Shown here in pieces: positions 822-60,389 of a DNA stretch of 64,000 bases; position 1 is the first letter of the stretch, and every line of letters begins with the position of its first letter. A program made the translations under genes and the position numbers. Origin of the DNA: Botryllus schlosseri. Taxonomy: Eukaryota. Under the pieces are notes generated by a model that worked only from the letters and a program-made list of their open reading frames with translations, did not search any database and was not told the origin of the DNA. The DNA lies in assembly GCA_051294905.1 (NCBI GenBank), contig CM119371.1:34288001-34352000 (forward strand). The letters run 5' to 3'.

Positions 822-1060
822 ATACTGGGTAAGTGAAGCAGCTCAACCATTTAGTACTACCTCGTAGTAATTCGTTTCGCAATGCCTCGCCAGTAGGTCC
901 GTCCACCAAACGGCTTGAGCAAAAGTGACGCTATTCAAGTCTCGACACTGGTTTATATATATGGATACGCATGAGCGCATCTCCCACGTCTCTCATCGCC
1001 GGTGTTGTCGCCGAGTTAATTGACACTGCCAAATAAAATCGTGCTATGAAGTTGTTACCT

Positions 1061-1070
1061 GGGTATTTCC
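1061..1070 (+). promoter_or_regulatory. NF-kB/Rel-like site, E2 copy 1
   Basis: GGGTATTTCC, 38 bp upstream of TATA; preceded by GTTACCT as in the copy 2 promoter. Confidence 0.6.
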
Positions 1071-1098
1071 TGGAGGAATATCGGGACTGGTAGGTAAG

Positions 1099-1106
1099 TA
1101 TATAAG
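1099..1106 (+). promoter_or_regulatory. TATA box, E2 copy 1
   Basis: TATATAAG, 68 bp before the ATG; equivalent element in all five intact copies. Confidence 0.7.
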
Positions 1107-1166
1107 TGAACGATTAAGTCAGTGGTGGATTGTTACGCAAGGTGAAGCAGCATTATTTTAAGAGAA

Positions 1167-1637
1167 ATGGCCATGAAAAGATTGCAGTTTGAGTACAAGA
1201 AATTTTTACAAGAGCCGGGGAAGCTTCCTATTAGAGCAGGACCGATCGACGAATCTGACTTGTATCATTGGTGGGCGACGATAGAAGGACCTCCCGGTAC
1301 TGCGTTTGAAGGAGGGGTATTTCGAATTCTTATAGAATATTCCACCGAATATCCATTCAAACCACCGAAAATGCGATTTGACACCAAGATCTTCCATCCA
1401 AACGTCAGCAGGCGGGGTACAATATGCGTGGATATTTTACAAGCTCAATGGTCGCCAGCACTGACAACGGAAAAAGTGCTTTTATCGATATGTTCTCTGC
1501 TAGCGTCGCCCAATCCTGACGATCCTATGGACGCCGAGAGTGCAAATTTGTACGTGGAAAACCCAAAACTCTACGCTCAGCGGGCTAAGCAATGGACGGA
1601 GCTGTACGCCAGAGGTTCTCCCGCAGCGGTTTATTGA
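1167..1637 (+). CDS. UBE2D-like: Ubiquitin-conjugating enzyme E2, UBE2D/Ubc4-5-like, copy 1 (156 aa, single exon)
   Basis: Complete UBC domain motifs: AGP, YPFKPP, HPN (77-79), catalytic Cys87 (TICVDIL; codon 1425-1427), WSPALT, LLSICSLL, PNPDDP. Confidence 0.96.
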   Translation: MAMKRLQFEYKKFLQEPGKLPIRAGPIDESDLYHWWATIEGPPGTAFEGGVFRILIEYSTEYPFKPPKMRFDTKIFHPNVSRRGTICVDILQAQWSPALTTEKVLLSICSLLASPNPDDPMDAESANLYVENPKLYAQRAKQWTELYARGSPAAVY

Positions 1638-2246
1638 ACGTGATTCCATAAAAAGAGCGGTGTTCAGTATATACTTCATGTATTTCTTACTGAACATTGA
1701 ACTGCATGTTTGGAAAGAATTTCCTGTAATAGCCTGTTACGTCTGAAGGCTATAATCCACTGTGAATCGCAATGATAGTGATTTTTTAAAAATCTATTTT
1801 GTTATAAGGTCAAGCCTTAACAATACATCTGCTATTATGCGACTTATTGGTCATACATGTGTTGATAGTTTCATACAGTTTAAATAATAATGCAAGAGTT
1901 AATTTTACACAAACAAAATTGCTTTTCGTCCGAAACAAAATATTTGATATTTCAATCTGCGTACATGAGTTAAACTCTCGATTGCACGCCATAAACTTCC
2001 AAATGTCGATTACCAGCAAGATTTTTCTCATCTTGTGCTAAATTTTTTACGACAACAATTCGTTCCTCGATACTGATCAAATCTGCAGTTTACAGTGATC
2101 TCGTGTTGGCATTTTCCAATTGTCGAATTCTTATTATTTGGTGGAGCAAAATGTTTTTTTTCGTTCAATAATTATACATGTGATATCCATTTATGTTTTA
2201 CATGCTTGTTGCAATGGATTTTCCGCGTACACATCTGAAATTTTAT

Positions 2247-2252
2247 AATAAA
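2247..2252 (+). terminator. Putative polyadenylation signal, E2 copy 1
   Basis: AATAAA inside a ~60-bp block well conserved with the copy 2 flank (AATAAA at 12172-12177). Confidence 0.5.
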
Positions 2253-2859
2253 ATATACCAAACCAATACTTTACATTTCGCCAAATCCTTCGTAACACAT
2301 GAGCGTGGCATACGAACAATACAAAATATAAGTTTCGATATACGCAACAGTCATTGCGAAGTCTGTTCAAAGCTATCAATACCAGAAGCACTTATTAGTG
2401 ACACGTTTCCAATTGCAGAAGCTTGAAGATAATGCTGTATAGACTAGCAGTATGTCGGTGCTCTTTGGTCGAGAATGACACGGTAATTGATATATCCAAT
2501 GTTCTGTAAGTTGATTTAGAGTACAGATTGCACGAAATGTCAACAATGATAGGGAATTTAGAAGCTATTATAAAATTCCAGATATACCGATAAGTCCCTT
2601 TTATTCTGACTCTGCTGCATCGTATATAAATGAAGTTGATACTAGATGTATTTTGAAATTGCTGGCAGAAACTGAAAATTCTAGTTGAAATATGTCACAT
2701 TGGAAATCGTCAGAAAATGTTCGTGTGTGCAAACATCCTTCATAACCGACGATCCGTGTGTTTCAGTCGAGGTGATGTCCCAATTTTGAAGTAGGACGGG
2801 AACTCCCCGAATCTATAGGTCTACATATCAAAATACTGGCCCGTGGATCGTGTAGATTC

Positions 2860-3813
2860 CAGTGTTGGGATCAAGTCAATACCTTCGAGTCACGAGTCAT
2901 CTCGAGTCATTGCACATTTTGACTCGAGTCAAGTCAAGTCAATCGATTTTCGAAAGTGACTCGAGTCAAGTCAAGTCACTCGTTTTTTGGATGTGACTCG
3001 AGTCAAGTCAAGTCAAGTCAAGTCGAGTCACGAGTCAAGTCACAATTCAAGTCAAATTGAATTTTCGAAGTATCAGTGTCGATTCGAAGTAATTACATTT
3101 TGCTAGCTGAGTGAAAGACAGTATAATTTGCCATTTATCTGACATCAAATAACTAATGTAAAGTTTAATATGCATGCAAGAACGCGTCTATCACGCACAC
3201 GTAGAACCGCAAATAAAATACGCGACTAACTGTATACCTATGCTACAGTCTGTTATTATATCAGTCATTAGGATCGAATACGAAGCCTCGAGAAGTTGTA
3301 ACAAATTGATATGGATTTGAATCAAACAAGAGGGTTGGTAAAGGTGATCACTGCGCAATGCTAGCAAGCAGTGAGCCGTACGTCTAAGAGACATGGATAG
3401 CCTACGTTCATTGCTATTGTATTCTTCTTCTTCTACTACTAATACTACTACGACTACAACGTAACCTGTGATCATTTCGTTGAGGTCAATATATTTGTGA
3501 TGCAATAATGGAGGATCATTCAAACGTACATTCAGTGAATGCCTGGTTACTCTCACAAGTGGCACATAGGCGTATCGCGAACAATACGGACTTATGCCCA
3601 AAATACACTGATTTGATTGATACCGTTTTCTTGATGACTTGAAATTGACTCGTAAATTTTGCGTCGAGTCACGAGTCAATCCGCATTTTTGAAGCGCCGA
3701 GTCAAGTCAAGTCAAGTCATTTTTGCAAAGTGACTCGAGTCAAGTCAAGTCAAACGAAAAAGTGACTCGAGTCTGACTCGAGTCAAGTCATGACTCGAGT
3801 CATCTCAACACTG
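2860..3813. mobile_element. hAT-type MITE with GACTC/AAGTC subterminal repeats
   Basis: TIR CAGTGTTGGGAT/ATCTCAACACTG; 8-bp TSD GTAGATTC (2852-2859, 3814-3821); GACTCGAGTCAAGTC arrays at both ends; absent from the paralogous copy 2 flank. Confidence 0.92.
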
Positions 3814-4718
3814 GTAGATTCTACGCTGTGAAGTAGAACTTTACCACGGACTTGGGTTTGGGTGCGGCATCCAGATAAGGTTCAACGTTAGGTTAGGTTG
3901 GATAGGCTTACTGGCCGCGGTTAGGGTTATTCACATGGTCAAGTGTCGCACGCTCCATTGCCGTTTTTGATTGTGTCGCTAGCTTAAATGTTGGACTAGG
4001 TACCACCTGTTTACCGCGGAAGATTTTTCCAACTTATTTCCCATGGTCTTAGTAAATAGATCTACGTAGTGACACGATATCGTTTTCTGTGTATTTATAT
4101 AAACCGCTGATGATGATCCAAGGGCTTTGAAGGCATGAGATGTTTATCTCCATTGGAGCGTAACAATGTTCGTCAATGACGTCTCGCTATACATAACCAG
4201 AAATGGTTTTACGCACGGCGCTCTTCTGTTGCCTTCTAGCTCCATTGTTCAGTTGCACAATGTGTTCAGTTCATATGACGCACGTGCCCCGCGGCCCGTA
4301 CTGTTTCTGTGGACTTTGAAAATGTCAACATTTTCTTTTGGAGATACTTATACTCGCGCTGACGTTGTACCACGGATATTGGCAATTGCGCACACACGAG
4401 AAACAAATAAATCGTCAGACCACCAATTTATAAGCAGGTTACGCAGGTATGGAGAAGGTGGATTTCAGTCCAGTCCGGTTCACAGACGTGCCTGACGCCT
4501 TGCATACGCTTAATAAGTTTGATTGTGCAGCCTTTCTGTTGTGCATAACCATTACAATGTAGCAATGCAATGTAAGTCGCAACTCTTGGTTTAATGAGGA
4601 TAAACGTGAGTCACATAGTGTAGTAGGTTATTACCGCCAAGAATAGTCTCCATTCCGCCAACCGCCTTGGCGTGTAAGACATAACTTCTTTATAATATCG
4701 GCTGATAACTATCTAAAG

Positions 4719-5862
4719 CAGTGATTCCCAAGCGAGGCCCCGAGGCTCAAAAAATATATTAAGAAATCGATTTATGACGAAAAATAAAATTTGTATTTAT
4801 AAAATATTCTTGCTTGGCTTGGCCTCTTTAGTTTTTAATTATAGAATTGCAAGAAAGTTGTGAGTATAGACTGCTAACGTTACGTCACTGCTGTTTCGAT
4901 GCAATGTGCCCTAACTTTCCAGTTGAACGAGCAGTAGCTATAGATATAATTAGGTATTGATAACTTTCAAAACGGGAGGAAAATACTGAAAAATAGTAAA
5001 TTTTTCCCACTTCGTGGTCGCTTGACTAAAAAAGAAAAAGAGGCTCAACTCCCGGAAAATACAGTTTTTCTTTCACATTAACAGGTGGTTGACTGAAATA
5101 AAAGGTCAACTTTCCGGTCCAGCTCCCGAAATAGCCGCCATAACGTTACTACAGTGCTGACTAAATGTATATCAGTCGAAATTGGCCCTATATGTAACCA
5201 AAATCCTAAAAAAAGAAGACAAAATCGCAAAAAAGAAGACATTTCGGCGTCCTCCAAGGACACTTTAAAAAAAATCATAATAGAGGATAAATCATCTTTA
5301 AAGAGGACGCATGGTAACCCTATGATAACTAGATGTGCAACACGTGACTCACGGTTGAATACGCTATTGGGTACTCTTCCCCAAGAAAAAAAATACGCAA
5401 GATATATAGAAATGGGAATATCAGACTTGGCCATGACCGCACCACAACGCCCAAGGCATATAAAGTTTTAGGCCATGTAACATGTGACTCCAAGAAGTGT
5501 GTCAGAACGATCGGCAGCGAGAAAGCCTTGGCCGTAAAGGACTGTTATTATGCTGATCAAAAACTTCGAGATACCAAAAACTTCCGATCATATTGACCGA
5601 TTCAGTGATGAAACTAAAGAAATTACTCGCGCTTTGCACGTTTAGGCGAGAAAAGCTGATTCACTCAACGGACACCCAATGCAGCAGATAAGTAGCGGTA
5701 AACAGTGTACAGTTTTGAAATCTCACCAGGGCAATAAAACTACTCCCAAATAGCCATGATGACTGTTTGGGTCCGTTTCATAGCCGTAGTATTCGTGCGG
5801 CCCCGACCGTACTCTGAAATTCTAAATTTGGCCCTCACACCGGAAAAGTTTGGGAACCAGTG
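4719..5862. mobile_element. hAT (Buster/Charlie-type) MITE
   Basis: TIR CAGTGATTCCCAA/TTGGGAACCAGTG; TSD ATCTAAAG; both ends shared with 51483-53189. Confidence 0.9.
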
Positions 5863-6349
5863 ATCTAAAGTTCGTTCTCTAAGTGATTGCCTAATCGCGT
5901 CGAGCAAGTGCGACGGTGAAGATATCGTGCCATAAAGTTTGTTAATAGGTTAAGAGACGATGACGCGCAGCTGGAGCGTGAAGGTTCTGTGGAAATTTCA
6001 ACAAATTGCAGCTCCATTACGGTGGCGTTCTGAACAAAATGGCTGTGGCAATTTTTTTTTCGTTTTGCCCTTCAATTTGAGACCACATCATTTTTAGAGT
6101 GCAGTGTCCCTTTAAATATCCGTTGAATATATCGGTGTTATTAGTGAGGGTATATGAATAAAATTCATAATGTCGTGGAAGCTTTCAATTGATACCAATT
6201 TTATCCATTTTCGAGCTCGGTAAACCGGTGAAAAATTAACTCAAGATTTCCTTTGGCCAAATGGACAGTATAATGTAAACCAATCGCAGTGAGCCGTGAG
6301 ATTTGCTTGTGTCGTCTGTCCACACATTGTAGGACACTATGGTCAATTG

Positions 6350-6600
6350 GTCATGGTCATACTCTTGAAAACGATTGCTGTCAGCAAGCATTTTTCGCTT
6401 GGGTAAAATACGCTGTATTTTGGATAGGAGTGCTGGATATGGTTCCTATAAAGACCTGACGATCGAAGCACTAGACGTTCTTGCACAACACAACATTTGT
6501 TTGGCCGGAAAGTGTCTTCGTGCACTATAGTTGAACTCAAACCGAGGCAAAAGAGTTGTCATGATGGCCTAAACCGGCAGCTTACTTGTTGCACAGCTAT
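6350..6600 (+). mobile_element. Degenerate hAT transposase C-terminal relic
   Basis: Aligns by eye to 27040-27300 (cagcaagcattt...tgtattttggatagga...aagcactag...gacgttcttg...tgtttggccg). Confidence 0.55.
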
Positions 6601-7966: not shown

Positions 7967-7970
7967 ATCT

Positions 7971-10965: not shown

Positions 10966-10976
10966 GGGGAGTCCCC
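10966..10976 (+). promoter_or_regulatory. NF-kB-like site, E2 copy 2
   Basis: GGGGAGTCCCC; reverse strand contains GGGACTCCCC, fitting GGGRNYYYCC; 41 bp upstream of TATA. Confidence 0.65.
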
Positions 10977-11006: not shown

Positions 11007-11014
11007 TATAAATA
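11007..11014 (+). promoter_or_regulatory. TATA box, E2 copy 2
   Basis: TATAAATA, 66 bp before the ATG. Confidence 0.72.
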
Positions 11015-11072: not shown

Positions 11073-11543
11073 ATGGCTATGAAAAGGCTTCAGTACGAGT
11101 ACAAGAAATTTTTACAAGAACCCGGGAAGCTTCCTATTAGAGCAGGACCGATCGACGAATCTGACTTGTATCATTGGTGGGCGACGATAGAAGGACCTCC
11201 TGGTACAGCGTTTGAAGGAGGGTTATTTCGCATTCTTATAGAATACTCCACCGAATATCCCTTCAAACCACCTAAAATGCGATTTGACACCAAAATCTTC
11301 CATCCAAACGTCAGCAGAAGAGGTACGATATGCGTGGATATTTTACAAGCGCAATGGTCGCCAGCACTGACAACGGAAAAAGTACTTTTATCAATATGTT
11401 CCCTGCTTGCGTCGCCAAATCCTGACGACCCTATGGACGCCGAGAGTGCAAATCTGTACGTGGAAAACCCAACACTCTACGTTCAAAGGGCTAAGCAATG
11501 GACGGAGATGTACGCCAGAGGTGCTCCGGTAGTACTTTATTGA
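11073..11543 (+). CDS. UBE2D-like: Ubiquitin-conjugating enzyme E2, UBE2D-like, copy 2 (156 aa, single exon)
   Basis: 147/156 residues identical to copy 1 by manual count; HPN and Cys87 intact. Confidence 0.96.
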   Translation: MAMKRLQYEYKKFLQEPGKLPIRAGPIDESDLYHWWATIEGPPGTAFEGGLFRILIEYSTEYPFKPPKMRFDTKIFHPNVSRRGTICVDILQAQWSPALTTEKVLLSICSLLASPNPDDPMDAESANLYVENPTLYVQRAKQWTEMYARGAPVVLY

Positions 11544-12441
11544 ACGTGATTCCATACCAGATCGGTGATCAGTGTAACAGGAAAACTTCTCAACATATAC
11601 TTCATATATGTCTTGCTGAATACTGAGCTGCGTTTTCTGAATGAATTCCATGCCATACCCAGGTACAGAGTATAACTCTGATGTGTATAACCCACTGTGA
11701 ACTGCTATTATAGTATTTCTATTTCTCTTTTGTAATATCGCCAAAGCTTTACCAATATCTCTGCATATATGTGGCTTAAGATAACAGTTGATTTTACACA
11801 AACAAAATTGCGTTTTCTCCGAGACAACTAATAAAACATCATTGTTTACCGGAACTGTAATATTTCTATGCATTCTATTCGAACAATGTGTATTATTTCT
11901 ATCTGTCTACATCAGTAAAACTATCGATTTTAGTCAATCTATTTTCAAACGTTGATTACCCGTGAGCTTTTTTTCACTTGTGGTAAATTTTTACCAGCAG
12001 CTCGTTTTTTGTTACTGATCAAATCTGTATCTCTGCTGACATTTTCTTATTGTCAGATTCTTATTATATGAAGAAATCCTGTGCTATTTTCATTATTATT
12101 ACTTGTGATAGCCATTAATGTTTTACGTGCTTGTTGCAATGGATTTCCAGCGTATACATCTGAGATTTTATAATAAAATGAACCAAACTAATACTTTACG
12201 TAGCATATGTGTGTGGCCTGCGAACAATACAAAATATAAGTCTCGCTTATACCAGGAGCACTTATCAGTAACACGTTTCCGATTACAGTATATCTTAGAG
12301 ATAAAGCTGTAGTAGCCAGGTTGTATTTTGGCGCTTTTCGGCCGAGGATAATACTGTGATAGATATATCTCGTGTATATATATATCTCGATATATCTCGT
12401 GTATATGTAGATATAGGCCTATCTCGTACGTTGATTTAGAC

Positions 12442-13260: not shown

Positions 13261-14699
13261 ATTTAGACAAAGTACAGATTGCACGAAATATCAGCAAGGT
13301 TAGGATGCTGGGTGTATGCTAAAGTTCGACTGGTACCAGACTTTAGAGGCGATATGAAAATTGCAGATAAACCGATAATTACAGTTCTTTCATGCTATGC
13401 TTCTGTTTCATCGTAAATAAATAAACTTGATACTGAATGTATTTTGAAACTACTTCCAACAATTGAAAATTCGACTTATTCGATAAATAAGTTACATTTA
13501 AATATCGCCACAAAATATCGGTGTATCGGCAATAAATCCTTCCTAGTCGGCGATCCGTATGTGTCGATCGAGGTGTTGTCCCAGTTAAAAACAGGACGGT
13601 AAGTCCCCGAATCTAAGAGTACATTTCAAAGTATGGATTTGTGGATATAGTAACATGCTACACAATATCATACAAAACTTTACCACATGGTGGGTTCAGG
13701 TTAGCATTAGGATTGGGGTCAGGGTTGAGGTTGAGGTTAGAGTTTGTGTTACATGGTCAATGCGATATTCTCAATGGTCGATGTTCATCGTGTCACAAGC
13801 TTCAATGTCGGGCAAGCGAAAGCCTACTTACAGCAGAAGAATTTTAGACTTGTTTCCCATAGTATCGGTAAAGGTGTGTACGCCGTTACGCGATATCATG
13901 TGCTGCGTCTTAATCTAAACTGCTGCTAATACATGGGATTTGAGACGACCGAGCACTTCTTAATTGATGGCGAACGCTATTCGACCCAACGCGATCACTT
14001 GAAGACGATAGCGGTCTTTAGACATATCATTTCGGATCACAAATCTGTTTTCAGATTCACGGATTTTACTACCATCAGTGCCTGAATTTGTTATCCTCAC
14101 CGGCAGACAGTTGTAACGCTAATGAATTTCTTAGACTCTTTAGACCTGGTGTAAAATGCCATAGTAGCCAATAACCAAATATTACAATAGTAACAACAAC
14201 AACACCACGGGATTTGTCAACACGAGATGATTAGCCCTGCTAGCGTCAACACGCGTCAATGCTGTTTTACGCTCGTCACTACGCCACAGTATTGTATTCT
14301 TTACATGGAATCGTATTGTAGGAAACCAAATGTACGCGTTCATATACGCACGTATAACCCGTGGTACGCCCTCGTTATATATACTTACATGGAAGGTGTG
14401 TCATGGGTACGACAGCAAACACGAGAACCAAACAAAGCAACAGCATGTTACGCAGTTGCGGAGAATGTGAATTTCAGTCCAAATATAGGGAAGCCGCTTG
14501 CAACAGACTTGTATATGAAATTCTGCATATATTATTTGGTCATGCTACATATATGTATTGTATAAACAACGTCACCTATTGTGTGTCACAATTTCGCACT
14601 AATCAGGAAATTATATTCACAATCTAAATATGACGTGTTACCTCCAAAGTCGTCTACTTTCTTATCACCCTCGATAAGCGGGTTGCTATTGGTGTATAC

Positions 14700-18108: not shown

Positions 18109-18504
18109 TAGGCTTACCATACGTCCTCCGGACGCCCTTTTGTCCTCTTTTTTGAGATTTTGTCCTCTTTTTTGAAAATTTAGATCAGATTTAGAGCAAA
18201 TTGCGAGTGATATGCCGCAAATTAGCACAGAAGTGACGCTCCGGCGGATATTTTGGAGTGAAAAACGGTGAATTTCGCGCTGAGCGAAAATATGACCTTT
18301 TTTTTTTCTTAGTCATCCACCCGGCAATGTGGAGAGGAAAACGGTATTTTGAGCTCTGAGCAGAAGTGATGACCTTTTTTTTTAGTCAACCGATCACAAA
18401 GTGGGAAAAATTCACCGTTTTTTGAGAGTTCTACTCCGGTTTTGCAAGTAGCAAATTTCTGAAAAAGTGTCCTCTTTTTAGATTTCCAAAATATGGTAAG
18501 CCTA
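18109..18504. mobile_element. hAT-type (Blackjack-like) MITE, copy 2
   Basis: TIR TAGGCTTACCATA/TATGGTAAGCCTA; TSD TGGTAGGG; closely similar to 383-821. Confidence 0.92.
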
Positions 18505-32985: not shown

Positions 32986-32997
32986 GGGGAATTCCCC
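32986..32997. promoter_or_regulatory. Distal palindromic NF-kB site upstream of E2 copy 3
   Basis: GGGGAATTCCCC, a perfect 12-bp palindrome containing consensus GGGAATTCCC, 665 bp before the ATG. Confidence 0.6.
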
Positions 32998-33531: not shown

Positions 33532-33543
33532 GGGGAATCACCC
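33532..33543 (+). promoter_or_regulatory. NF-kB-like site, E2 copy 3
   Basis: GGGGAATCACCC, one mismatch to consensus, 46 bp upstream of TATA. Confidence 0.5.
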
Positions 33544-33577
33544 GGTATATGTCCCTACTTTGTAGCACAGTAGGTCC

Positions 33578-33587
33578 TATATATATA
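33578..33587 (+). promoter_or_regulatory. TATA box, E2 copy 3
   Basis: TATATATATA, 73 bp before the homologous ATG. Confidence 0.68.
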
Positions 33588-33650: not shown

Positions 33651-34154
33651 ATGGCTATGAAAAGGCTTCAGTACGAGTGTAAAAAGTTTTCTAATGAGCC
33701 CAGCACGCTTCCTATTAAAGCAGGACCGATAGACGAATCGGACTTGTATCATTGGTGGGCGACGATAGAGGGGCCTCCCGGAACCCCTTTTGAGGGAGGG
33801 GTATTTCGAATTCTCATCGAATACTCAACAGAATATCCGTTCAAACCTCCGAAAATGCGATTCGACACTAAGATTTTCCATCCTAACGTCAGCAGGCGGG
33901 GCACGATATGCGTGGATATTTTGCAAGCGCAATGGTCACCAGCACTCACAACGGAAAAGGTACTGCTATCGATATGTTCCCTGCTTGCATCTCCCAATCC
34001 TGACGACCCTATGGACGCCGAGAGCGCTAATTTGTACGTGGAAAATCCGAAGCTTTATGCATTACGGGCCAAGCAATGGACCGACATGTATGCAACTGCA
34101 TCGTCATCAATAACGCAACGAGTCGAAAGGGATCAAGGGATCACAGTCTATTAA
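33651..34154 (+). CDS. UBE2D-like: Ubiquitin-conjugating enzyme E2, UBE2D-like, copy 3 (167 aa, extended C-terminal tail)
   Basis: MAMKRLQ start homologous to the other copies; the ORF-track start at 33549 lies upstream of the TATA box; HPN and Cys87 intact. Confidence 0.95.
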   Translation: MAMKRLQYECKKFSNEPSTLPIKAGPIDESDLYHWWATIEGPPGTPFEGGVFRILIEYSTEYPFKPPKMRFDTKIFHPNVSRRGTICVDILQAQWSPALTTEKVLLSICSLLASPNPDDPMDAESANLYVENPKLYALRAKQWTDMYATASSSITQRVERDQGITVY

Positions 34155-43363: not shown

Positions 43364-43374
43364 GGGAATTCACC
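43364..43374 (+). promoter_or_regulatory. NF-kB-like site, E2 copy 4
   Basis: GGGAATTCACC, one mismatch to GGGAATTCCC, 58 bp upstream of TATA. Confidence 0.55.
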
Positions 43375-43421: not shown

Positions 43422-43428
43422 TATATAT
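43422..43428 (+). promoter_or_regulatory. TATA box, E2 copy 4
   Basis: TATATAT, 80 bp before the ATG. Confidence 0.62.
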
Positions 43429-43501
43429 GACCGACAGCAGTTTGCGGAACCAACACAACGAATCTGTCAGCCATATATGCACCGAGTGAATAAAGCAGCG
43501 C

Positions 43502-43999
43502 ATGGCTTTGAAGCGGTTACAGTACGAGTGTAAGAAGTTTTCACAGGAGCCGAGGGACTCTGCCATTCGAGCAGGGCCAGTCGACGATATCAACCTGTAT
43601 CGGTGGTGGGCCACCATCGACGGACCCGAAGGAACGCCATTTCAAGGCGGCGTTTTTCGAATCCTGATAGAATATCCAACAGAATATCCGTTCAAGCCGC
43701 CGAAAATGCGATTTGAAACGAAGATTTTTCATCCGAATGTCAGTCGTAAAGGCACAATATGCGTAGATATTTTGCAAAAGCAGTGGTCACCAGCGCTGAC
43801 GACATCGAAGGTCCTCTTGTCCATATGCTCCTTGCTTGCTTCTCCCAATCCGAATGACCCGATGGACCCGGAGAGTGCGAGTCTATATTTAGAAAACCCT
43901 ACAGAGTACGCCAAACGCGCGAGTCAGTGGACCGACATGTATGCCAAAGACGCTGTCCAGTGTTCGGGTTCAGTACAGAAAACAATGTATGTCAAGTGA
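43502..43999 (+). CDS. UBE2D-like: Ubiquitin-conjugating enzyme E2, UBE2D-like, copy 4 (165 aa, most divergent)
   Basis: MALKRL, AGPVDD, FQGGVF, YPFKPP, HPN, TICVDIL, WSPALTTSKVLLSICSLL all intact. Confidence 0.96.
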   Translation: MALKRLQYECKKFSQEPRDSAIRAGPVDDINLYRWWATIDGPEGTPFQGGVFRILIEYPTEYPFKPPKMRFETKIFHPNVSRKGTICVDILQKQWSPALTTSKVLLSICSLLASPNPNDPMDPESASLYLENPTEYAKRASQWTDMYAKDAVQCSGSVQKTMYVK

Positions 44000-47430: not shown

Positions 47431-48798
47431 CAATTTCATTTGCTTATTCGGTGTTGGTCGCGAAGGTGGATTTAGCAATTTCAAAGACCTTCAATTTCTA
47501 TTTTCACTGCAAGTAGTTTTGGCAAGTCTTGGAAATCGATACAGTTACTTACAACTCTGCAGCCAACTCGCCTATAAATATTCTGACGCCCAATGCCAAT
47601 TACTAAATGTGTTAGTAAACCAAAATAAAATACCATCGTTCACTTTCATTATTATAGTAATACCAAGTATTAGATTCCACTTGGTATGGATAACGATGCG
47701 TTTTTTTCTTCATTTTTCCTAATTATTGGCGCGTTTCCCTCATCTAACCATCTACTATACCCGCTAGTAGGACTTGCGTGATCTTGCAAGTGGATTTACA
47801 ATCAGCGATTGAATACCAGCGTGCTGTAATTTCTTCGGCGGAAGTCAATTCAGGAGCCATTCATACGTACATGAAGTCCCCTTGTCAGTATTGATGATTC
47901 GTAGACTATTAAATACATGTAGCCGACTGTCACTGTTACAGTCATAAGTATGGTGAATATTTTGTGACCTATAATTAAAACTTTGACATTTTCTTACATC
48001 AATAAACTTTATTTTTACAAATGTGTGCCGTATGAAAAACTCACGTAGTTACACTACGGATTATTTTGCAAAAAGTCCAGATTTATTGTAGTACGGCGAG
48101 TTATGCTTAGCTACACGATCTTGTAGTCAGTCAGTGGGTAGGGTTACCGTATTTTGAGATCCGTCTTTTCAAAAATTCTGAAAGCTCCAGCACCGGAAAA
48201 AACTGAAAATTAAAAAGAAAATCGACCGATAGTACATGTGTTGACTAAAATATGGTCATACCTGTCACCGGCCCTAGTAAAAACACATAAGCGTATATTT
48301 ATAATATATATGTTTTTCAGGTTGCAAGAAAAGACATACTGTAAATGACCTCTTTTGAACCTTATCATATTTTCTCATTCCACATATTCATTGATTGCAT
48401 TACAGTGTTTTGTGATTGTTGATTGGTTGTATCCTTAAAATCAACCTATCATGACGCTTAATGAGCACTACATGAACCTTTCATTTCACACAAGACAATT
48501 ATCCATAATAAGATACATAAATTGTATGGTGGCAATAGCAGTTTGCGATGTGGTGATGAAGATTGAGAAGTCAGGAACATGTGGGGTACCTTTAAAATGA
48601 CACCATAGATCAGGAGAGGTCAACCCGTGACCCGGGGGTTAAATGTGGTCCGCGAGAAGGTTTTGATTGGCCCGTGAGGTAATTCTATAAATTAATTATG
48701 TTATCACAGAAATAAATTACCGAGGAAAGTTATTGTGAGCTTGCAGGACATCCAAACATTTCATGAACCTGACCGCGAAACGTGGAACAATTAATCGA

Positions 48799-49162
48799 AT
48801 CAACGAATCAAACTATCGAAGGGCCCATGGAACGCTCTCTCAATGAAGATTGTTCAAAATGCTTCTAGAATACTCGACGGAATATCCCTTCAAACCGCCT
48901 AAAATGCGATTCGAGATCAAGATCTTTCATTCCTACGTAAGCAGAAGAGGGACGATATGTGTTGATATTTTGTAGAGGCAATATTCACCGGTACTTACTA
49001 CATCGAAGATTCTTTTGACGATATGTTCTCAACTCGCCTCCCAACCCAAATGACCGGATGGACACTGAGAGTGCAGATCTATATTTGCAAAATCCCGAAC
49101 TTCATTTCAAGCGGGCTAAGCAGTGGGCGGAAATGTACGCTGTCAATAATTCAGTCGTGTAG
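48799..49162 (+). pseudogene. UBE2D-like E2 pseudogene (sixth copy)
   Basis: Translates across frameshifts as INES/TIEGP/GTLSQ*RLFKMLLEYSTEYPFKPPKMRFEIKIFHSYVSRRGTICVDIL*RQYSPVLTTSKILLTICSQLAS/PNDRMDTESADLYLQNPELHFKRAKQWAEMYAVNNSVV*; TAG at 48973-48975; 2-nt deletion near 49040. Confidence 0.93.
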
Positions 49163-50493
49163 CAGGCAGTCGATACTTGTATTCACAGTAGGTGGATTAT
49201 AGGTTGTAACTGCAAGGTTACTTGTAGAAGCCCATGTTTGTGCGGTGTAAACAGATGTCATTGAAATGCCAATGAAATAGAATTGCTGAATCGTATTTCT
49301 AAGTAACTCGATTGTATACCGAGAGAACTTGCTATTTTGGACGGTTTTCCCGCCTTTCTTCGTCAGCAAAATCTGGCGGGGTACCAATTTAGAACCGCCA
49401 AAAGGGAACTCCAATATTCAAGTCTCAGTACAGTACCGATGCATTTGGGAATGTTGTTGGCTTCAGGTTTCAAAATGGCTGACAAGAATGCCTTAGCATT
49501 GCACAATAATGCGGACGGGTACAAATGGAAATATATATGTGTGCCATCGGAATCGAGACTCTGCCATCCCCCCTCGCCTGCTGGTGTTCGCGCAAAGGCA
49601 ATACACACGTCATTCAGACTCCTACATGTTAAGGCATCTTTTTTCTACGATTGACTCGGGTACCGAAATAAAATTTGAGCGCAAATGTACTTAAGATGCT
49701 AGGGAAGTGGTAGCAACACCACAAGTTGCTAGTAGGGTCGCGAATTCTAACTTGAAGGAAATTAACCCGTTATCTCTGACAGGATCCAGTTGCATTCTAG
49801 CTTACATATCCCCAACAAAATAATCTATGAGCTTTTCCGTAATGACTCGACATTAACTTATTCATAGAAATGGTGGCATTGAGTTGAATACAGGTATTTG
49901 AACATGTAATAACATATTTTGTGAAATTATTAAGATTTGCTTCTACGTAGTCAGGTATAGGGAGCATGAAATATGCGGACGTAATTGCAACATCCAGTTT
50001 GGGCTTTATAGCTTAGAATAACTGCCACACAGAAAAGATCATCAATGAGGTGCTTCTACGCTGCACGAGAAATGATCGTGTGGCGATTATAGGCGCAGAA
50101 GCCAGTCTAATCTTGACTGTCGGTAACGCTGGTATAAACCAAACACAGCCATTTACTACAATTATTGAATAGACAATGACACAAAGTAGGCAAGGACAGA
50201 ATAAACGTAGGATTTATAACAATGCTTGCAAATCTTCAACCGTCCTCACAGCAAAGTAACAAACAAAAAAGGTCTATCAATTGAATATATAGAGAAGGAA
50301 AACGAGACTGATAATGATGATTACACCGAGTAGTAATCAAATAGAAATACACAAATTACACACGAAACAAGGTAATGCCGTACGCACGCGTTAACATGAG
50401 GTTTTTAACCCTACAGATAGACAATGTACTACTTACCTCATCCACTGAATATTTTCTTATATTGCACGGTATATCGAGATCGTATACCAAATG

Positions 50494-55397: not shown

Positions 55398-56070
55398 CTG
55401 TAAGGTGTAAGGAATGATCATAATTAACGAGTCCGGGAATTTGTTTACACGAAATATCATTGAACTTATATACAATCGTCAAGACGCTCCAAACTGATTC
55501 CGTCTCTTTCTTTGTATCATTGTGGCTGCATCACAGAACAACTGTGACAGATGCTGACAGAGACCGTCGAGCAACGTTTGCCATAAAAATCACGAAGGTA
55601 TAGGGCTGGTAATACGGACATTTTCTATAAATCCTTTTTAAACCAGCATTTCAGCAGGTTTCATGGCTGCATTATGTTTTTGGAAATACATGGATTTCGT
55701 CTAAAAGTATTGTGAAAAGTATCAGCGACTCACTCGAAATGCGATAAAAAGAGCACATTTGGGTATTTTGTGCATCTTCGGAGGACAGTTCACTTTTCAT
55801 GGGAAAATACCACAAATCTTCCTAAAATATGACATATGGTAGGCCTGAATACCAGTATAGTCTACTCATCGCTCATTGCTCAGTTAGCTACAGCCATGTA
55901 GAAAATCTGAATTACGTGTCGTTGTACCACGCATCCAGCAAGGACACGATGACATTTCCGGTTTCCAGTCTGCGTCTACGGTCATTGTCGTAACTTTTAG
56001 CCCTCGATCACACTCTCCAACTAAATATACCTAGGCCTATGTCAGAGAAGTTCAGCCCGTGGCACATAAC

Positions 56071-56870
56071 TAGGGCTGGACACAATCATTCGAGTACTCG
56101 AATCTGAATCGTGTATTAATTTTAATGATTCGAGTCGAGTAGTAAAAGACGATTTTTTTCGAGAACTGAAATTATACGCTCCTCGCAACTGAAAGTTAGT
56201 TTATCAACGAGAATTATAGTTTCGATACTAATCAATCAATCAATCAATCAATCAATCAGGTTTATTAACATTTTCATCGTTTCAAAACATCACAAGACTG
56301 CGATACAATGAAAAGATAGGAAGGTGTCGAAACAGCTTGGAGTAGCCATTAAGATTAGACACCCACCTTAGCCTAGGCGAAGTAAATAAGAAGCATGCAC
56401 ACTGAATGAAAAGTAATGCAGAGAATATAAGACGCAAGCGACAAAATGGGGTGGCATGTGGCGGAGGGCGAGGTCGATGTTAGGTCGTGGTCCAGTAATC
56501 CTGAAGCCTAATTTTCACTGTTGAAGTCTTGCAACCTTGATTGGCCGTATCGTAGCATACGAAACATTTAGTACGAAGCTACGAACGTTACCGGAAATAG
56601 CACATTTCCGAAGTCATGATCATTCCACAACATTGTCACCCAGTGCAATGAAATCGGTATGATAGGAAAAATACCAAAGTATATTTAATGTGATGGAAAA
56701 CAGGCATTATATTCTTTGTGCTCGCATAAAAGGTACATTTTTGAACTTTGACATATTACATTCTGTTATGAAGTCATAATGATTGATACTCGATAACTCA
56801 ACTCGAATCGAAGCATATATTGCGTGATTCAGAATCGAATCACGAAAGCACTCGATTTTGCGCAGCCCTG
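56071..56870. mobile_element. hAT-type MITE (TAGGGCTG family) interrupted by a retroelement tail
   Basis: TAGGGCTG...CAGCCCTG termini; colinear with 58101-58610 apart from a ~280-bp insertion. Confidence 0.85.
56231..56510 (-). mobile_element. 3' fragment of a non-LTR retroelement with (TGAT)7 tail
   Basis: Minus strand ends AATAAACC(TGAT)7; segment absent from the sister MITE at ~58258. Confidence 0.7.
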
Positions 56871-56901
56871 TCATAACACGTGAATTCACGTCACTCTAAA
56901 T

Positions 56902-57403
56902 CAGGGGTCACCAACCTTTTTGAAACCAAGAGCTACTTCTTGGGTGTTGAATAATGCGACGGACTACCAGACACTCCCGCCGTTAATCTGCGCTCATTCG
57001 GGCTTTATCACTTGGACATTCAGATCACTCGGCAGGATTTCCACCCCTTGCCTATAACAGAATTCCATAAAAATTTCAGTCCGCGGGACTCACACCAGCG
57101 TCTACGGGCTCAATAGCGCACTGCGCGCCGATGCGCCAATCTCCGATACGCGACTATAGGGAATATTACTTAGATTCCCGTTAAGCCTCCGCGTGGACGA
57201 AGACGAGAAACGCCCCGATCGAAAACCGCGTTCATGTGTTCCTTAGGGTCAACTGACCCGTGTTCAACTGGTGCTCATATAAAACCATTCTCCGCTTCGA
57301 CTTTCAAATCTCTCATTTGAATATTTGCTACTGCGACCGCGGGCGATTCATTTGGTTCTCGCGCGGTACCGGTAGCCCGCGGACACCGCGTCAGGGACCC
57401 CTG
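56902..57403. mobile_element. hAT MITE carrying a 28S rRNA-like fragment
   Basis: CAGGGGTC...GACCCCTG termini; TSD CTCTAAAT/CTCTATAT, with the right copy split by the next insertion. Confidence 0.85.
57241..57338 (-). pseudogene. Degenerate 28S rRNA fragment
   Basis: CTTAGGGTCAACTGACCCGTGTTCAACTG...TTCTCCGCTTCGACTTTCAAATCTCTCATTTGAATATTTGCTACT closely resembles, from recall, the reverse complement of a conserved eukaryotic LSU rRNA segment. Confidence 0.8.
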
Positions 57404-57407
57404 CTCT

Positions 57408-57999
57408 AAGGGTTTTAATGACTCGAGTCATGACTCGACTCGAGTCCGACTCGAGTCACGATTTTCTGATGACTCGACTTGACTCGAGTCATTTTCTCAA
57501 AATACGAGAATGACTCGACTCGAGTCAATCTGTGTCGTGACTCGACTTGGACTTGAGCCATTGCGTATGACTCGAACCAAGTCATATGACTCGAGACTCA
57601 GAAGGCCGAGACCGACATTTCATTGTAATTTCGAAGAATAGTAGAGTAACCACACTATTGGGATTTCGTCAATTGGTACTGGTACTTGAAAATGTGACCA
57701 GAAACGACAAAAAGTGAGGAAATTTAGTACATTATGAATTCGAACCATTCGATATCAACTAGCAGAGTTATAAGAAGTGTGTTTAACGAGACTTTAACTG
57801 GAAACTGAGCAGTCAACACAATGACTTGGACTCGGACTCGAGTCATAATACCATGACTCGGACTCGACCCTCTGATCGATGACTTGGACTCGGACTTGAC
57901 TCGGTCGCGAGTTGAAAATGACTCGACTTGACTCGAGTCAAAACTATTAAAGTGAGATTGACTTGTGACTCGGATCCTTGAGACTTGGTTACAACCTTG
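57408..57999. mobile_element. hAT-type MITE with GACTC repeats
   Basis: TSD CCTGCTCT (57400-57407, 58000-58007); imperfect termini AAGGGTTTTAA/TTACAACCTTG; GACTCGAGTC arrays. Confidence 0.85.
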
Positions 58000-58100
58000 C
58001 CTGCTCTATATCATCCCATGATCCACTCCTTCATTTGATCGATATAAAGTAAGGTAGCCTTCCACAATGAGCTATGAACACTTCGAACAATACTTGAGAC

Positions 58101-58610
58101 TAGGGCTGGGCACAATGATTCGAGTACTCGAATCTGAATCGAGTACTAATTTTATTGATTCGAGTAGAGTAGTAAAAGACAATTTTCTCGAGTACTGAAA
58201 TTATACGCTCCTCGCAACTGAAAGTTAATTTACTAACGATAATTATAGTTTCGATATTAAGTTTCATTGTGGAAGCCTTGAAACCTTGATTGGCCGTGTA
58301 GCAGCATACGAAACATAGTACAAAGCTACAAAAGTTACTGGAAATAACACATTTTCGAAGTCATGATCATCCCACAACATTGTCAAGAAGTGCAATGAAA
58401 TCGGTATAGTCGAAAAAATACCTAAGTATTTTCAATGTGACGGATAACAGGCATTATGTTCTTTGTGCTGGCCTAAAAGATTCATATTTGAACTTTGACA
58501 TAGTATATTCTGTTGTGACGTCATAATGAGTGATACTCAAATACTAGACTCGAAGCGTAATACGTGACTCAGAATCGAATCACTCAGGTACTCGATTTTG
58601 CCCAGCCCTA
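58101..58610. mobile_element. hAT-type MITE (TAGGGCTG family)
   Basis: TIR TAGGGCTGGGCA/TGCCCAGCCCTA; TSD CTTGAGAC. Confidence 0.93.
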
Positions 58611-59807
58611 CTTGAGACTATACAGGAGTCCATAGCTTTTAACAGTGCGCTGGTTCGTATGATTCGGAGCAAGTCATCAGGGTCGACTTGGGTAATGATT
58701 AGGACTGGACAAAACTGAACGACCTGACAGATTCGCTTCGCGCCGAGTCAAGGTTTCAAGGCTGCCACTGTGGGACCACGACAAAGATTCACAGTGCCAA
58801 TAGCGTTTAAATTCGTTACTCGAAATATTCGACTCTTGCTGCTCGGCTCGAATCAGAACAATTGATTCTCGAATCGTTGTGCCCATGCCTAGTAAAGACG
58901 CTTTATAAGTATAGCTCATGAACTGGGCAAGTGTGAGCACCATACAGCGAGCTAAGTATAGACAGACCATGAATCATATTTGATACATTTTGGTTGATCA
59001 AATTCCTCGGAAACTGCCTTGGCAGTCGTGAAAGCGTGAATCGCTTAGAAATGGGACTTATTTCGGCGGGCTATTGGAACACCCATCAACTGAGCCTTAA
59101 CCTAACCTTCAACGGCAAATAGACATACCTACGATGACCACTGGCCTGTGATCTTTATCAATCATATATCAAACAAATACTGCTCCAATAATAAATCATA
59201 TCGAAGCTATTTTATCTACCAAATAGCTTAGTATAGTCCATAATGTCTGACTTTCCGCCGATAAACATGAGATTCAGTATCCTAGCCCTCAATGCAGTGA
59301 CTGCATTTCATGATTGTTGAGGTAATATATTACTCTAGAATCCGATTAAAACATATTAGCCGATTCACTGCACGACTTTGTTTCTTATCGCATGTTTGTG
59401 GAAATAATTATGCAAACTGCGTACTTTTAGGTGGGTAAATATTTGAAGAACTTGAACTTGAACTTCGATAAATACTCAAACTAAATCATTCATGAACTGA
59501 ACATCAACGGACAAATACCAAAAATCATGAAATCTTTTCATTATTTACGTTTCTCATCCTGGCAACAGGAAAGACCCTGCCTCCGCACTTGCCTCCGCAA
59601 GTTGTATTATTCGTTTTTGAGGTATCTGCCTCTCTATACATTGTAAAAATTGACTCCAGATTTCCAATACCAGGTTTATTCGTAATTTTTCGGTTAAATT
59701 CTGCTGTTTGCCACGAGCAAAGTCAAACATTTCAAATCATATGATGAAGCAGAATAAAACCGGCTATGCAATGAATAGCTTGGACAACACATTTTCCGTA
59801 TTACCAC

Positions 59808-59817
59808 GGGATTCCCC
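59808..59817 (+). promoter_or_regulatory. NF-kB site, E2 copy 5
   Basis: GGGATTCCCC, exact fit to GGGRNYYYCC, 47 bp upstream of TATA; second weaker site GGAAAGACCC at 59568-59577. Confidence 0.7.
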
Positions 59818-59854
59818 AGCTCATACGACTCTTTGTTGGTAACCCTCTTCGTCC

Positions 59855-59864
59855 TATATATAAA
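59855..59864 (+). promoter_or_regulatory. TATA box, E2 copy 5
   Basis: TATATATAAA, 64 bp before the homologous ATG. Confidence 0.75.
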
Positions 59865-59918
59865 GCGTAGTTGCTGATAAGCACAATGAAACGGCCGGCA
59901 ACAAGGGTTACACGAGAG

Positions 59919-60389
59919 ATGGCTACGAAAAGGTTACAATACGAGTATAGAAAGTTCTTACAAGATCCCGGGAATCAGCCTATCAAAGCGGGGCCTATTA
60001 ATGAATCCGACTTGTATCATTGGTCAGCAACGATAGAAGGGCCTCCCGGAACTCCATTTGAGGGAGGGGTTTTTCGAATTCTCATCGAATACACAACAGA
60101 ATATCCATTCAAACCTCCTAAAATGCGATTCGACACGAAGATTTTCCATCCAAACGTCAGCAGGAGGGGTACAATATGCGTAGATATTTTGCAAGCGCAA
60201 TGGTCGCCTGCACTAACGACGGAAAAAGTACTTTTATCGATATGTTCTTTGCTTGCGTCTCCTAATCCTGACGATCCTATGGACGCCGAGAGCGCTACGT
60301 TGTACGTAGAAAATCCGACACTTTATGCGATTCGGGCGAAGCAATGGACCGATATGTATGCACGGGGTTCGCAGATTACAGTTTTCTAA
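59919..60389 (+). CDS. UBE2D-like: Ubiquitin-conjugating enzyme E2, UBE2D-like, copy 5 (156 aa, single exon)
   Basis: MATKRLQ start homologous to the other copies; in-frame upstream ATG at 59886 sits at about the expected transcription start; HPN and Cys87 intact. Confidence 0.95.
   Translation: MATKRLQYEYRKFLQDPGNQPIKAGPINESDLYHWSATIEGPPGTPFEGGVFRILIEYTTEYPFKPPKMRFDTKIFHPNVSRRGTICVDILQAQWSPALTTEKVLLSICSLLASPNPDDPMDAESATLYVENPTLYAIRAKQWTDMYARGSQITVF

Follow-up and report, generated by a model that had tools for sequence, protein, structure and literature searches.

The locus considered here raises the question of whether a kB-like motif shared by tandemly arranged E2 genes of Botryllus schlosseri is a genuine promoter element and, if so, which factor would read it and to what effect. 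The stretch of DNA analysed (the window) is 64 kb long and holds one section of a tandem array that comprises 23 loci over 372 kb; in the whole genome, at least 118 matches to the array-type E2 were counted. Situated in the window, all on the + strand, are five intact UBE2D-like E2 genes, each with a single exon, and a sixth copy that is broken. A first-pass annotation of the window had described these as a tandem battery of five co-oriented, intronless UBE2D-like genes plus a pseudogene. This inventory agrees with the open reading frames, as every intact copy is read in a single open frame, and with Pfam, as all five intact ORFs match UQ_con end to end (E 1e-47 to 1e-49). The size of the unit had to be revised, the real unit being the array of 23 loci.

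E2_1 (1167..1637, + strand) encodes a protein of 156 aa, as does E2_2 (11073..11543, +), which is 94% identical to it; the 3' flanks of the two genes are similar as well, up to about position 12245 on the E2_2 side. E2_3 (33651..34154, +; 167 aa) has a longer C-terminal tail, and 33651 is its likely start because the in-frame ATG at 33549 precedes the TATA box. E2_4 (43502..43999, +; 165 aa; 77% amino acid identity to E2_1) is the most divergent copy in the window. E2_5 (59919..60389, +) comprises 156 aa when read from the Met that is homologous to the Met of the other copies; a further in-frame ATG is found at 59886, about where transcription is expected to begin. The broken copy (about 48735..49175, +) exhibits at least two frame changes and in-frame stops, lacks a start codon and has its HPN motif changed to HSY. 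Six pairs of window genes with finite dS gave dN/dS values of 0.04-0.10 at dS from 0.34 to above 1, and dS was saturated in all four pairs that involve E2_4. The array copies are thus old, and their proteins are under strong purifying selection.

Aligned with human UBE2D1, to which an array E2 is about 52% identical over 148 residues, the proteins match at Cys85, HPN, Phe62, Pro95, Asp87 and the NPDDP loop, and are predicted to be catalytically intact. Extracts of one study (PMC6349121) describe F62A,P95D as a variant that is unable to bind a RING E3 and report that backside ubiquitin binding of UbcH5B is abrogated by S22R. With the catalytic Cys, HPN and the RING-contact residues kept, the array E2s should load ubiquitin and serve RING E3s. 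The backside residue Ser22 is Arg or Lys in array proteins (Arg in the UBE2D1 alignment), and stimulation by backside ubiquitin would consequently be expected to be absent.

Upstream of the five genes, GGG..CC motifs were found at all of the positions listed in the first-pass annotation, each string occurring once in the window, and the distances from motif start to TATA box were likewise reproduced. For E2_1, the kB-like site GGGTATTTCC (1061..1070, +) deviates from GGGRNYYYCC by one mismatch and is preceded by GTTACCT; its TATA box TATATAAG (1099..1106, +) starts 38 bp from the site start, with the ATG 68 bp further. The site of E2_2, GGGGAGTCCCC (10966..10976, +), also follows GTTACCT and is perfect on both strands, with the TATA box TATAAATA (11007..11014, +) at 41 bp. 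E2_3 carries GGGGAATCACCC (33532..33543, +) and, at 46 bp, TATATATA (33578..33585, +), while E2_4 carries GGGAATTCACC (43364..43374, +) and, at 58 bp, TATATATG (43422..43429, +); both sites have one mismatch and read CACC in place of the expected YYCC. The E2_5 site GGGATTCCCC (59808..59817, +) is perfect, preceded by ATTACCAC and followed at 47 bp by the TATA box TATATATA (59855..59862, +). As had been claimed, all sites fit GGGRNYYYCC or are one mismatch away (two perfect, three with one mismatch). A distal perfect palindrome, GGGGAATTCCCC (32986..32997, no strand assigned), lies 665 bp 5' of the E2_3 ATG. The decayed promoter of the pseudogene (48630..48692, +) has kept ACCCGGGGG and a TATAAAT at 48686, and its second half-site is gone. 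Across the 64 kb, 7.3% of 80-bp windows match at up to one mismatch and 0.67% perfectly, and a motif-blind 8-mer test on the five promoters found that shuffled sets reached 5/5 in 94 of 100 trials. Taken alone, the five window promoters are weak evidence for the motif.

Better support than the window could provide comes from paralogues outside it, which carry the module too. A GGGRNYYYCC match occurs at the same position in nine of nine of these paralogues and is perfect in eight. Counting window and outside copies, a site allowing one mismatch lies between -150 and -60 relative to the ATG in 14 of 14 array genes (10 of 14 perfect); these stand for about 11-12 independent lineages, as L005/L006 and L008/L010 are near-duplicates. 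Control windows taken farther 5' of these genes contain a site in 8 of 98 cases (1 of 98 perfect). Since paralogues share descent, such counts are non-independent trials, and what carries the argument is that the site is conserved while its surroundings have diverged, not binomial probabilities. A motif-blind search of eight out-of-window promoters returned TATATAAA and GAAATCCC as top 8-mers, each in 8/8, a number reached by none of 100 shuffled sets. When 12 promoters are aligned with MAFFT, mean column identity is 35% and all columns conserved at 90% or more fall within the kB-like or TATA block; with promoters 35% alike outside these blocks, the earlier remark that little else upstream is alignable holds. 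The consensus module reads TACCY-GGGGANNYCCC, followed by a spacer of 31-47 bp (58 bp in a single copy), TATA, 39-91 bp and ATG, the 5' flank TACC(T/C) being conserved in addition to the kB consensus. In pseudogenes, the site was lost in all three cases examined. From these comparisons, the kB-like site with its TATA box is a real, position-fixed and selectively maintained promoter module, and its presence across the array suggests a switchable E2 battery.

Beyond the array, a more distant subfamily, whose proteins are about 60% identical (subfamily B), has four copies that retain TACCTGGGTATTCC plus TATATAAA; three of them belong to the eight scored intact genes of this subfamily, the other five of which have no site, and the fourth (L038) is partial. 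Canonical-like UBE2D copies have no site upstream (0/3). Genome-wide, ACCYGGGGANNYCCC has 25 matches, seven of which lie upstream of array genes in gene orientation, and the same extended motif is found eight times near genes without assigned identity at C12:7.21-7.44 Mb, pointing to a wider regulon. Between the two bulk RNA runs compared, expression of the genes is not constitutive. In run X12, of which about 6% was used, reads cover the E2_2 coding sequence and 3' UTR, with a summed depth of about 19-36 across 11260-12093, and E2_1 has reads at low depth; in run X16, reads on both genes are zero. No splice joints were seen in the reads over E2_1 and E2_2. Similarity between the reads and the window is 95-99%, with fixed differences; the reads consequently derive from another strain or individual, and the contrast between the runs could be caused by tissue, stage or strain.

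The interpretation of the first-pass annotation, an NF-kB-induced E2 family with a role in immunity, is partly supported. In the explanation favoured here, held with about even confidence as a whole, the array is a large, old tandem set of single-exon, catalytically intact E2s of the UBC4/5 (UBE2D) type, in which selection holds the kB palindrome and TATA box in place while the remaining promoter drifts beyond alignment. Most likely, a Rel-homology factor (NF-kB/Relish/Dorsal-type) would bind the palindrome and a signal would turn the genes on; binding by Rel/NF-kB and immune induction are what we infer from the site. The proteins would then load ubiquitin and work with RING E3s without backside-ubiquitin stimulation. 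The likely partners are RING ligases of the IAP/TRAF type that act in cell-death and innate-immune signalling, a suggestion based on known UBE2D biology and on the gene neighbours of sister E2s in other elements: E2s in virus-like elements adjoin Bcl-2, BIR, Death-domain and caspase genes, some E2 copies elsewhere in the genome adjoin IAP genes, and in another repeat unit a 3xBIR+RING IAP lies 1.7 kb upstream of the E2 (ORF end to E2 start).

That the GGG..CC strings are chance, functionless matches in AT-rich promoters would suit the powerless motif-blind test on the window and its three mismatched sites, but is contradicted by the out-of-window paralogues, the control windows, the restriction of promoter conservation to the kB-like block and TATA box, and the loss of the site from pseudogenes, and is regarded as very improbable. 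A weightier, though still unlikely, alternative accepts the cis-element and assigns it to a non-Rel factor, or to a composite that includes a TACCY binder, the genes forming a tissue- or stage-specific battery (e.g., germline, embryo or stress). The conserved TACC(T/C) flank, which to our knowledge no kB consensus covers, the on/off contrast between the RNA runs and the wider regulon on C12 speak for it. Against it, the core fits the literature kB consensus, perfectly so at the rates given above for array genes and controls, and we know of no other factor family with a GGGGA..TCCCC preference. Rel-homology domain exons are present at five places on four contigs of the genome. In addition, one array site has as its core GGGAATTCCC, which extracts of one study describe as the kB probe of a sea-anemone NF-kB gel-shift assay (PMC5700166).

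Less probable again is an origin of the array as domesticated E2 cargo of Maverick/Polinton-type elements, acting as a decoy or counter-measure against such elements and not in ordinary immune signalling. Judged by sequence, the nearest relatives of the array family are the E2s of virus-like mobile elements that carry apoptosis regulators: Maverick/Polinton-like elements of the same genome encode E2s 64-69% identical to array proteins, as compared with about 51% for canonical-type UBE2D copies, and in the tree the element-borne E2s group together as a single clade (100/95) within the set of array lineages. The single-exon structure, too, would be in keeping with a viral or retro origin, and the elements are recent, as their copies are 98-99.5% alike. 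However, monophyly of the host array is not rejected by an AU test (p 0.33). When the tree is rooted with canonical UBE2D, array lineages appear basal, a pattern just as compatible with capture by the elements. No kB module accompanies the E2 copies in the elements (site upstream in 0/6 and 0/4). The 90 other ORFs of at least 85 aa in the window gave no Pfam match, so that the window is free of element core genes.

The favoured explanation, a Rel-switched host E2 array, can be compared with several known systems. With UBE2D1-4/UbcH5 (yeast Ubc4/5), the array proteins share the UBC fold and the aligned residues described above. They differ in that the array genes are single-exon, occur in dozens of copies and group as a clade of their own, separate from canonical UBE2D (100/99); their products have two extra residues before the Arg/Lys at Ser22 and C-terminal tails that vary in length from 8 to 50 residues. 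Virus-encoded E2 enzymes also exist, e.g., that of African swine fever virus. The sister E2s in virus-like elements beside anti-apoptotic genes resemble these, whereas the window genes reside in a host-type tandem array.

Lineage-specific expansions of IAP (BIR-RING) genes are described for invertebrates such as bivalves in extracts of three papers (PMC7831173, PMC8917759, PMC13159474). According to these extracts, such expansions likewise represent a tandem and dispersed, partly intronless ubiquitin-system family with ties to apoptosis and immunity, but consist of E3s, with the UBC domain occurring only within BIRC6-type proteins. The B. schlosseri genome is also BIR-rich, with a very large repertoire of 664 first-look candidates. 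A literature search turned up no account of an expansion of stand-alone E2 genes or of its promoters. Promoters that combine a kB site with a TATA box are typical of rapidly induced immune genes, namely vertebrate NF-kB targets and insect antimicrobial-peptide genes. Although the array promoters drive E2 enzymes instead of effectors or cytokines and also conserve the TACCY flank, they have in common with such promoters a GGGRNYYYCC-type palindrome tens of bp 5' of the TATA box, in front of compact, intron-free genes with a short 5' UTR.

An ATG-to-stop open reading frame (ORF) scan of the window, combined with Pfam searches, identified five intact E2 genes on the forward strand, namely E2_1 (1167-1637), E2_2 (11073-11543), E2_3 (33651-34154), E2_4 (43502-43999) and E2_5 (59919-60389), together with a broken sixth copy at ~48735-49175, which shows at least two frame changes and in-frame stops, lacks a start codon and carries HSY in place of the HPN motif. 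This gene content, five co-oriented, single-frame UBE2D-like genes and one pseudogene, is that described in the first-pass annotation. The five ORFs encode proteins of 156-167 aa; two can be lengthened in frame by starting at an earlier ATG, but in both cases this codon precedes or coincides with the point where transcription is expected to begin. Sequence likeness among the window copies is confined to the coding sequence (73-85% at the nucleotide level), with the exception of E2_1 and E2_2, which also share ~700 bp of their 3' flank. A Pfam scan of 90 further window ORFs of at least 85 aa, which multi-exon genes with short exons could escape, returned no matches and, as far as seen, the window contains E2 genes and repeats only. 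A six-frame search of the 495.5-Mb assembly with E2_1 yielded at least 118 matches. Twenty-three E2 loci are located between 34.121 and 34.493 Mb of the same contig (C1), so that the window, at C1:34288001-34352000, forms part of a 372-kb array; a few further copies were found on small unplaced contigs.

The array E2s are old genes under strong purifying selection: dS is 0.34 between E2_1 and E2_2, 0.7-1.5 for most of the remaining window pairs and saturated in comparisons with E2_4, while dN/dS among the window copies ranges from 0.04 to 0.10. With regard to a retrogene origin, the array genes are intron-free and, except for E2_1 and E2_2, their likeness ends within ~20 bp of the ATG; given the age of the copies, neither poly(A) nor target-site remnants would be expected.

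All five window proteins match the UBC core domain PF00179 over positions 1-139 of 140 (E 1e-47 to 1e-49), and their closest solved relatives are human UBE2D1-3 at ~52% identity. There is no doubt about their fold. Alignment to UBE2D1 showed that the catalytic Cys, HPN, Asp87, the NPDDP loop and Phe62 and Pro95 are all kept, the last two being described as RING-contact residues in a published study (PMC6349121). Across 11 array proteins, the positions of the catalytic Cys, HPN, Phe62 and Pro95 are invariant and the TEYPFKPPKMRF and QWSP loops show no variation; variation is concentrated in helix 1, in the stretch preceding the Arg/Lys that replaces Ser22, in the residues immediately following HPN, and in the C-terminal helices and tails. 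Ser22, the residue responsible for backside ubiquitin binding, aligns to Arg. This position is occupied by Arg or Lys in all array copies, by Lys or Arg in copies carried by mobile elements and by Gln in a distant array subfamily, and Ser22 is retained by canonical-like UBE2D copies of the same genome. In UbcH5B, according to the same study, the substitution S22R abrogates both backside ubiquitin binding and the stimulation of discharge catalysed by an IAP RING (PMC6349121). Judged by these residues, the array E2s would be charged and serve RING E3s but be blind to backside ubiquitin, and the replacement of Ser22 leads to the concrete biochemical prediction that stimulation by backside ubiquitin is absent.

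In a phylogenetic tree, the array family was split from canonical UBE2D with support of 100/99 by a branch of 1.5 changes per column, rather than being grouped with it, and is a derived sister family. The element-borne E2s, themselves one clade (100/95), are placed among the array lineages. An AU test did not reject a monophyletic array (p 0.33), and the gene may have passed in either direction between array and elements. Canonical-type UBE2D copies with Ser22 at C6:17876687-17880943 and C9:11999332-12002775 were also found to be single open frames and lack the kB-like site; two of them lie in tandem, 0.8 kb apart. Other parts of the genome contain multi-exon E2 matches, such as two pieces 1 kb apart at C15:8306799-8307963.

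Each intact window gene had been reported to carry a match to the NF-kB/Rel consensus GGGRNYYYCC upstream of a TATA box. The five motif strings were all recovered at their positions, each of them unique in the window, at distances of 38, 41, 46, 58 and 47 bp from the TATA box, as claimed; two fit the consensus perfectly and three with one mismatch. The accompanying impression that little else upstream can be aligned was also borne out, as likeness is restricted to the coding sequence save in E2_1/E2_2 and a MAFFT alignment of 12 promoters showed a mean column identity of 35%, which is consistent with the old age of the array copies. All columns of at least 90% identity in this alignment belong to the kB-like or the TATA block. 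The background is appreciable: the window as a whole contains 67 sites with at most one mismatch, six of them perfect, so that a site is present in 7.3% of 80-bp windows and a perfect one in 0.67%. A motif-blind 8-mer search restricted to the five window promoters was powerless, with shuffled sets reaching five of five in 94 of 100 trials. Taken alone, the window would leave the claim open.

Upstream DNA was read for all array copies of which sequence was available, including paralogues outside the window that had not been seen in the first pass. Nine of nine out-of-window genes of the window's subfamily carry a site with at most one mismatch, which is perfect in eight (for example GGGGAATTCCC, GGGGAGTCCCC, GGGGAACTCCC and GGGACTTCCCC). 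From these sites it is 74-122 bp to the ATG and 32-39 bp to a TATA-like box; in one gene with a site, the TATA box is missing. When all 14 array genes were pooled, a site was present between -150 and -60 in every one (10 perfect), compared with 8 of 98 control windows (one perfect), seven windows of 90 bp each being taken farther upstream of the same genes. The comparison with background frequency, on which the first-pass annotation had made its claim depend, is thus in favor of the motif. The loci L005/L006 and L008/L010 are near-duplicates, so that the 14 genes represent ~11-12 independent lineages. When eight promoters from outside the window were searched motif-blind, TATATAAA and GAAATCCC ranked as the top two words, both present in eight of eight, a value reached by none of 100 shuffled sets.

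The distant array subfamily, which shares ~60% protein identity with that of the window, has kept TACCTGGGTATTCC and TATATAAA in four copies, including the partial gene L038; counted between -150 and -60, the site is present in three of its eight intact copies and missing in five. Three pseudogenes, two of them duplicates of each other, could be read at their 5' end: the site is gone from all three, with only ACCCGGGGG remaining in one, and the TATA box is kept in each. Upstream of E2s borne by mobile elements, the site was found in 0/6 and 0/4 cases, and in 0/3 upstream of canonical-like UBE2D. The extended motif ACCYGGGGANNYCCC occurs 25 times genome-wide (64 times for the backwards-read control), and seven of the 25 matches are located upstream of array genes in gene orientation. 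The conservation of the site in the array, its loss in pseudogenes and its absence from other E2s lead to the conclusion that it is, very probably indeed, a real cis-element maintained on working genes.

Further motif occurrences were noted around these genes. At window positions 32986-32997, 665 bp upstream of E2_3, there is a perfect 12-bp palindrome, GGGGAATTCCCC; the sequence after it, GGTATACTGGTATATG, is similar to a repeated unit on contig C12 (see below). A perfect site, GGGAACTCCC, is found at 2798-2807, 1.16 kb downstream of E2_1; the block around it is conserved on the 3' side of E2_2 as well, but with a decayed site. These two and a position at 13598-13608 may act as distal elements or may be what is left of former promoters. 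Five loci (L002, L012, L013, L015 and L031, two pseudogenes included) share a conserved stretch after the TATA box, CATCGTCGAGCGATTCAATAG...GAACAACA. This stretch probably represents the 5' UTR or the start region in a single sub-lineage.

Which factor recognizes the site can be approached from its sequence and from the genome's Rel proteins. The core of the array site is a textbook kB site, and one array site contains GGGAATTCCC, which served as the probe in an NF-kB gel shift in a study on a sea anemone (PMC5700166). The genome exhibits 13 exon-level matches above cut-off to the Rel-homology domain PF00554, at five places on four contigs. On the 5' side, the TACC(T/C) that immediately precedes GGGG comes close to the kB core in conservation, which the 3' flank does not; with conservation extending past the kB consensus, the site may be recognized by a composite or by a factor of another kind. 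On the opposite strand the flank reads (A/G)GGTA, which may point to a second factor or to an extended half-site. One Rel-homology DNA-binding match, at C10:14106241-14106633, lies inside a stop-free frame of 1711 aa, unusually long for a single exon, and sits in a region rich in repeat units carrying an IAP and an E2 (C10:14.43-14.76 Mb).

A cluster of eight of the 25 genome-wide ACCYGGGGANNYCCC matches was observed at C12:7206941-7437302 (loci L063, L064 and L065). Here, the 36-nt unit ATGTAACCTGGGGAACTCCCCGGTATATGATAAGGT occurs twice in L063, 453 bp apart, and its 25-nt core has four genome hits, all at this locus. In three 1.5-kb stretches at C12:7.21-7.44 Mb, no motif-oriented ORF of at least 50 aa with a recognizable product was found. 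A further gene family controlled by the same factor may be located here.

Sequencing runs mapped onto the window provided information on transcription. In the bulk RNA run X12 (~6% read), the coding sequence and 3' UTR of E2_2 were covered at a summed depth of ~19-36, with reads present 40 bp past its TATA box, and E2_1 was covered weakly (~2-4); no splice joints were seen in X12 reads over E2 genes. In the bulk RNA run X16 (~13% read), depth was zero on E2_1 and E2_2 and nearby repeats were covered. The mapped reads are 95-99% alike to the assembly with fixed differences and so derive from another strain or individual. The comparison of the two runs shows transcription and non-constitutive expression, nothing more. 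No pile-ups of molecule starts were reported in the mapped reads over the window. Nine small runs of uncertain kind contain 5-10% of sampled words; the two of them that were mapped (X1 and X3) mostly covered repeats and do not enter the results. A repeat at 418-834, alike to 18130-18504, showed very high depth in all four runs mapped and, at 524 and 629, loose ends that resemble poly(A); it is probably an abundant, transcribed short retroelement. The window also contains two inverted pairs of arrays of the 16-bp minisatellite GGACATTACCGAGAAT (45129-45613/47038-47419 and 36548-36657/36796-36923), the larger of which encloses ~1.4 kb. These pairs look like subterminal repeats of a DNA transposon, and long ORFs within the minisatellites are repeat artefacts.

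Many of the at least 118 E2 matches are dispersed, near-identical copies. Two families of elements were recognized among them. The first is 17.8 kb long, with inverted ends of ~240 bp and two copies that are 98.1% identical (L051 and L052, C1:20441000-20460999; L053 and L054). The second measures ~19.4 kb, with inverted ends of ~416 bp and two copies that are 99.5% identical over the first 14.7 kb (L055 and L056; L057 and L058). Between the two families, likeness is 72% over 10.6 kb. By the criteria of equal ORF length and score, ~11 copies of each are contained in the E2 match list, of which those named here were verified. Both have the 15-20 kb size, long terminal inverted repeats and near-identical copies of Maverick/Polinton elements. 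Of the integrase and packaging ATPase typical of such elements, an rve integrase with a chromodomain is encoded in both (E 2e-13 and 6e-10) and a Pox_A32-type packaging ATPase (E 1e-9) was found in the first, the corresponding ORF of the second family spanning a locus junction outside the scan. A 1236-aa ORF of the second family has no Pfam match at E 0.01; its nearest Atlas clusters carry PF03175, the family of protein-primed polymerases (score 0.97, 18/30 hits), which amounts to a lead and not to a match, and its 1309-aa counterpart in the first family likewise spans a locus junction outside the scan. The candidate capsid and protease ORFs (425 aa and 150 aa) gave no Pfam match. At the element ends, both families carry an E2, a BIR protein and a Death-domain protein as cargo, to which a Bcl-2-family gene is added in the first and a caspase in the second. 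Both families are virus-like elements of Maverick/Polinton-like type whose cargo relates to cell death. A search of a viral contig collection for close relatives of the element-borne E2 found none.

A third repeat unit of more than 19 kb, whose copies are 85-93% alike (L059 and L060, C3:29431000-29450999; L061 and L062), encodes an LRR protein, an IS1595-type DDE transposase, a 564-aa IAP with three BIR domains and a RING, and an E2 located 1.7 kb downstream of the IAP, as well as a CCHC gag-like ORF and an RT-RNaseH-Tpt1 ORF. This unit is a mobile E3-E2 pair. The arrangement of a BIR match 2-3.5 kb upstream of such an E2 in the same orientation was found in at least 20 places (25 matched, place lists being compared by eye). 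A genome-wide BIR search returned 664 first-look candidates, and all 150 of these that were scored exceeded the Pfam cut-off. Identical 394-aa ORFs account for many of the BIR matches and are arranged as inverted pairs at a spacing of ~6.7 kb; this points to a further element that has BIR genes within or close to its inverted ends.

Taken together, the observation of an E2 array with kB-like and TATA promoters is confirmed and considerably strengthened, and it is established that a functional, expanded E2 family carries a conserved promoter made up of a kB-type site and a TATA box. The interpretation offered in the first pass, a family induced by NF-kB and acting in immunity, is partly supported: Rel binding, immune induction and a partnership with IAP/TRAF ligases can reasonably be inferred, and the mechanism as a whole is given roughly even chances. 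kB plus TATA minimal promoters are of the kind that drives fast-response immune genes. A more far-reaching model, which we consider rather unlikely, proposes a signal-inducible E2 layer, in which dozens of Rel-driven, backside-blind UBC4/5-type E2s would re-tune the output of the expanded IAP/RING ligases in infection and cell-death decisions and would form a front against virus-like elements that carry the same E2 with Bcl-2, BIR, Death-domain and caspase genes. UBC4/5-type E2s are usually regarded as constitutive, few and interchangeable, and regulation and specificity are normally ascribed to E3s; if the model were true, E2 supply would be a regulated and contested step of innate immunity, on top of E3 specificity.

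Here, by comparison, is a genome in which a UBC4/5-type E2 has been multiplied many times under strong purifying selection, with the same minimal promoter on each working copy. If Rel factors bind, it would offer a ready-made system to ask whether E2 supply is regulated in invertebrate innate immunity and cell death, and the promoter module is small and sharply defined and so directly testable. The element-borne E2 beside Bcl-2, BIR, Death-domain and caspase genes provides a natural case of a ubiquitin-pathway gene common to host and mobile element. In the open-access literature, no description was found of an expanded stand-alone E2 array, of kB-driven E2 genes or of Maverick/Polinton elements with E2 and cell-death cargo. 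The kinds of system that underlie the array are both known: the UBC4/5-type E2 and the kB-driven gene battery.
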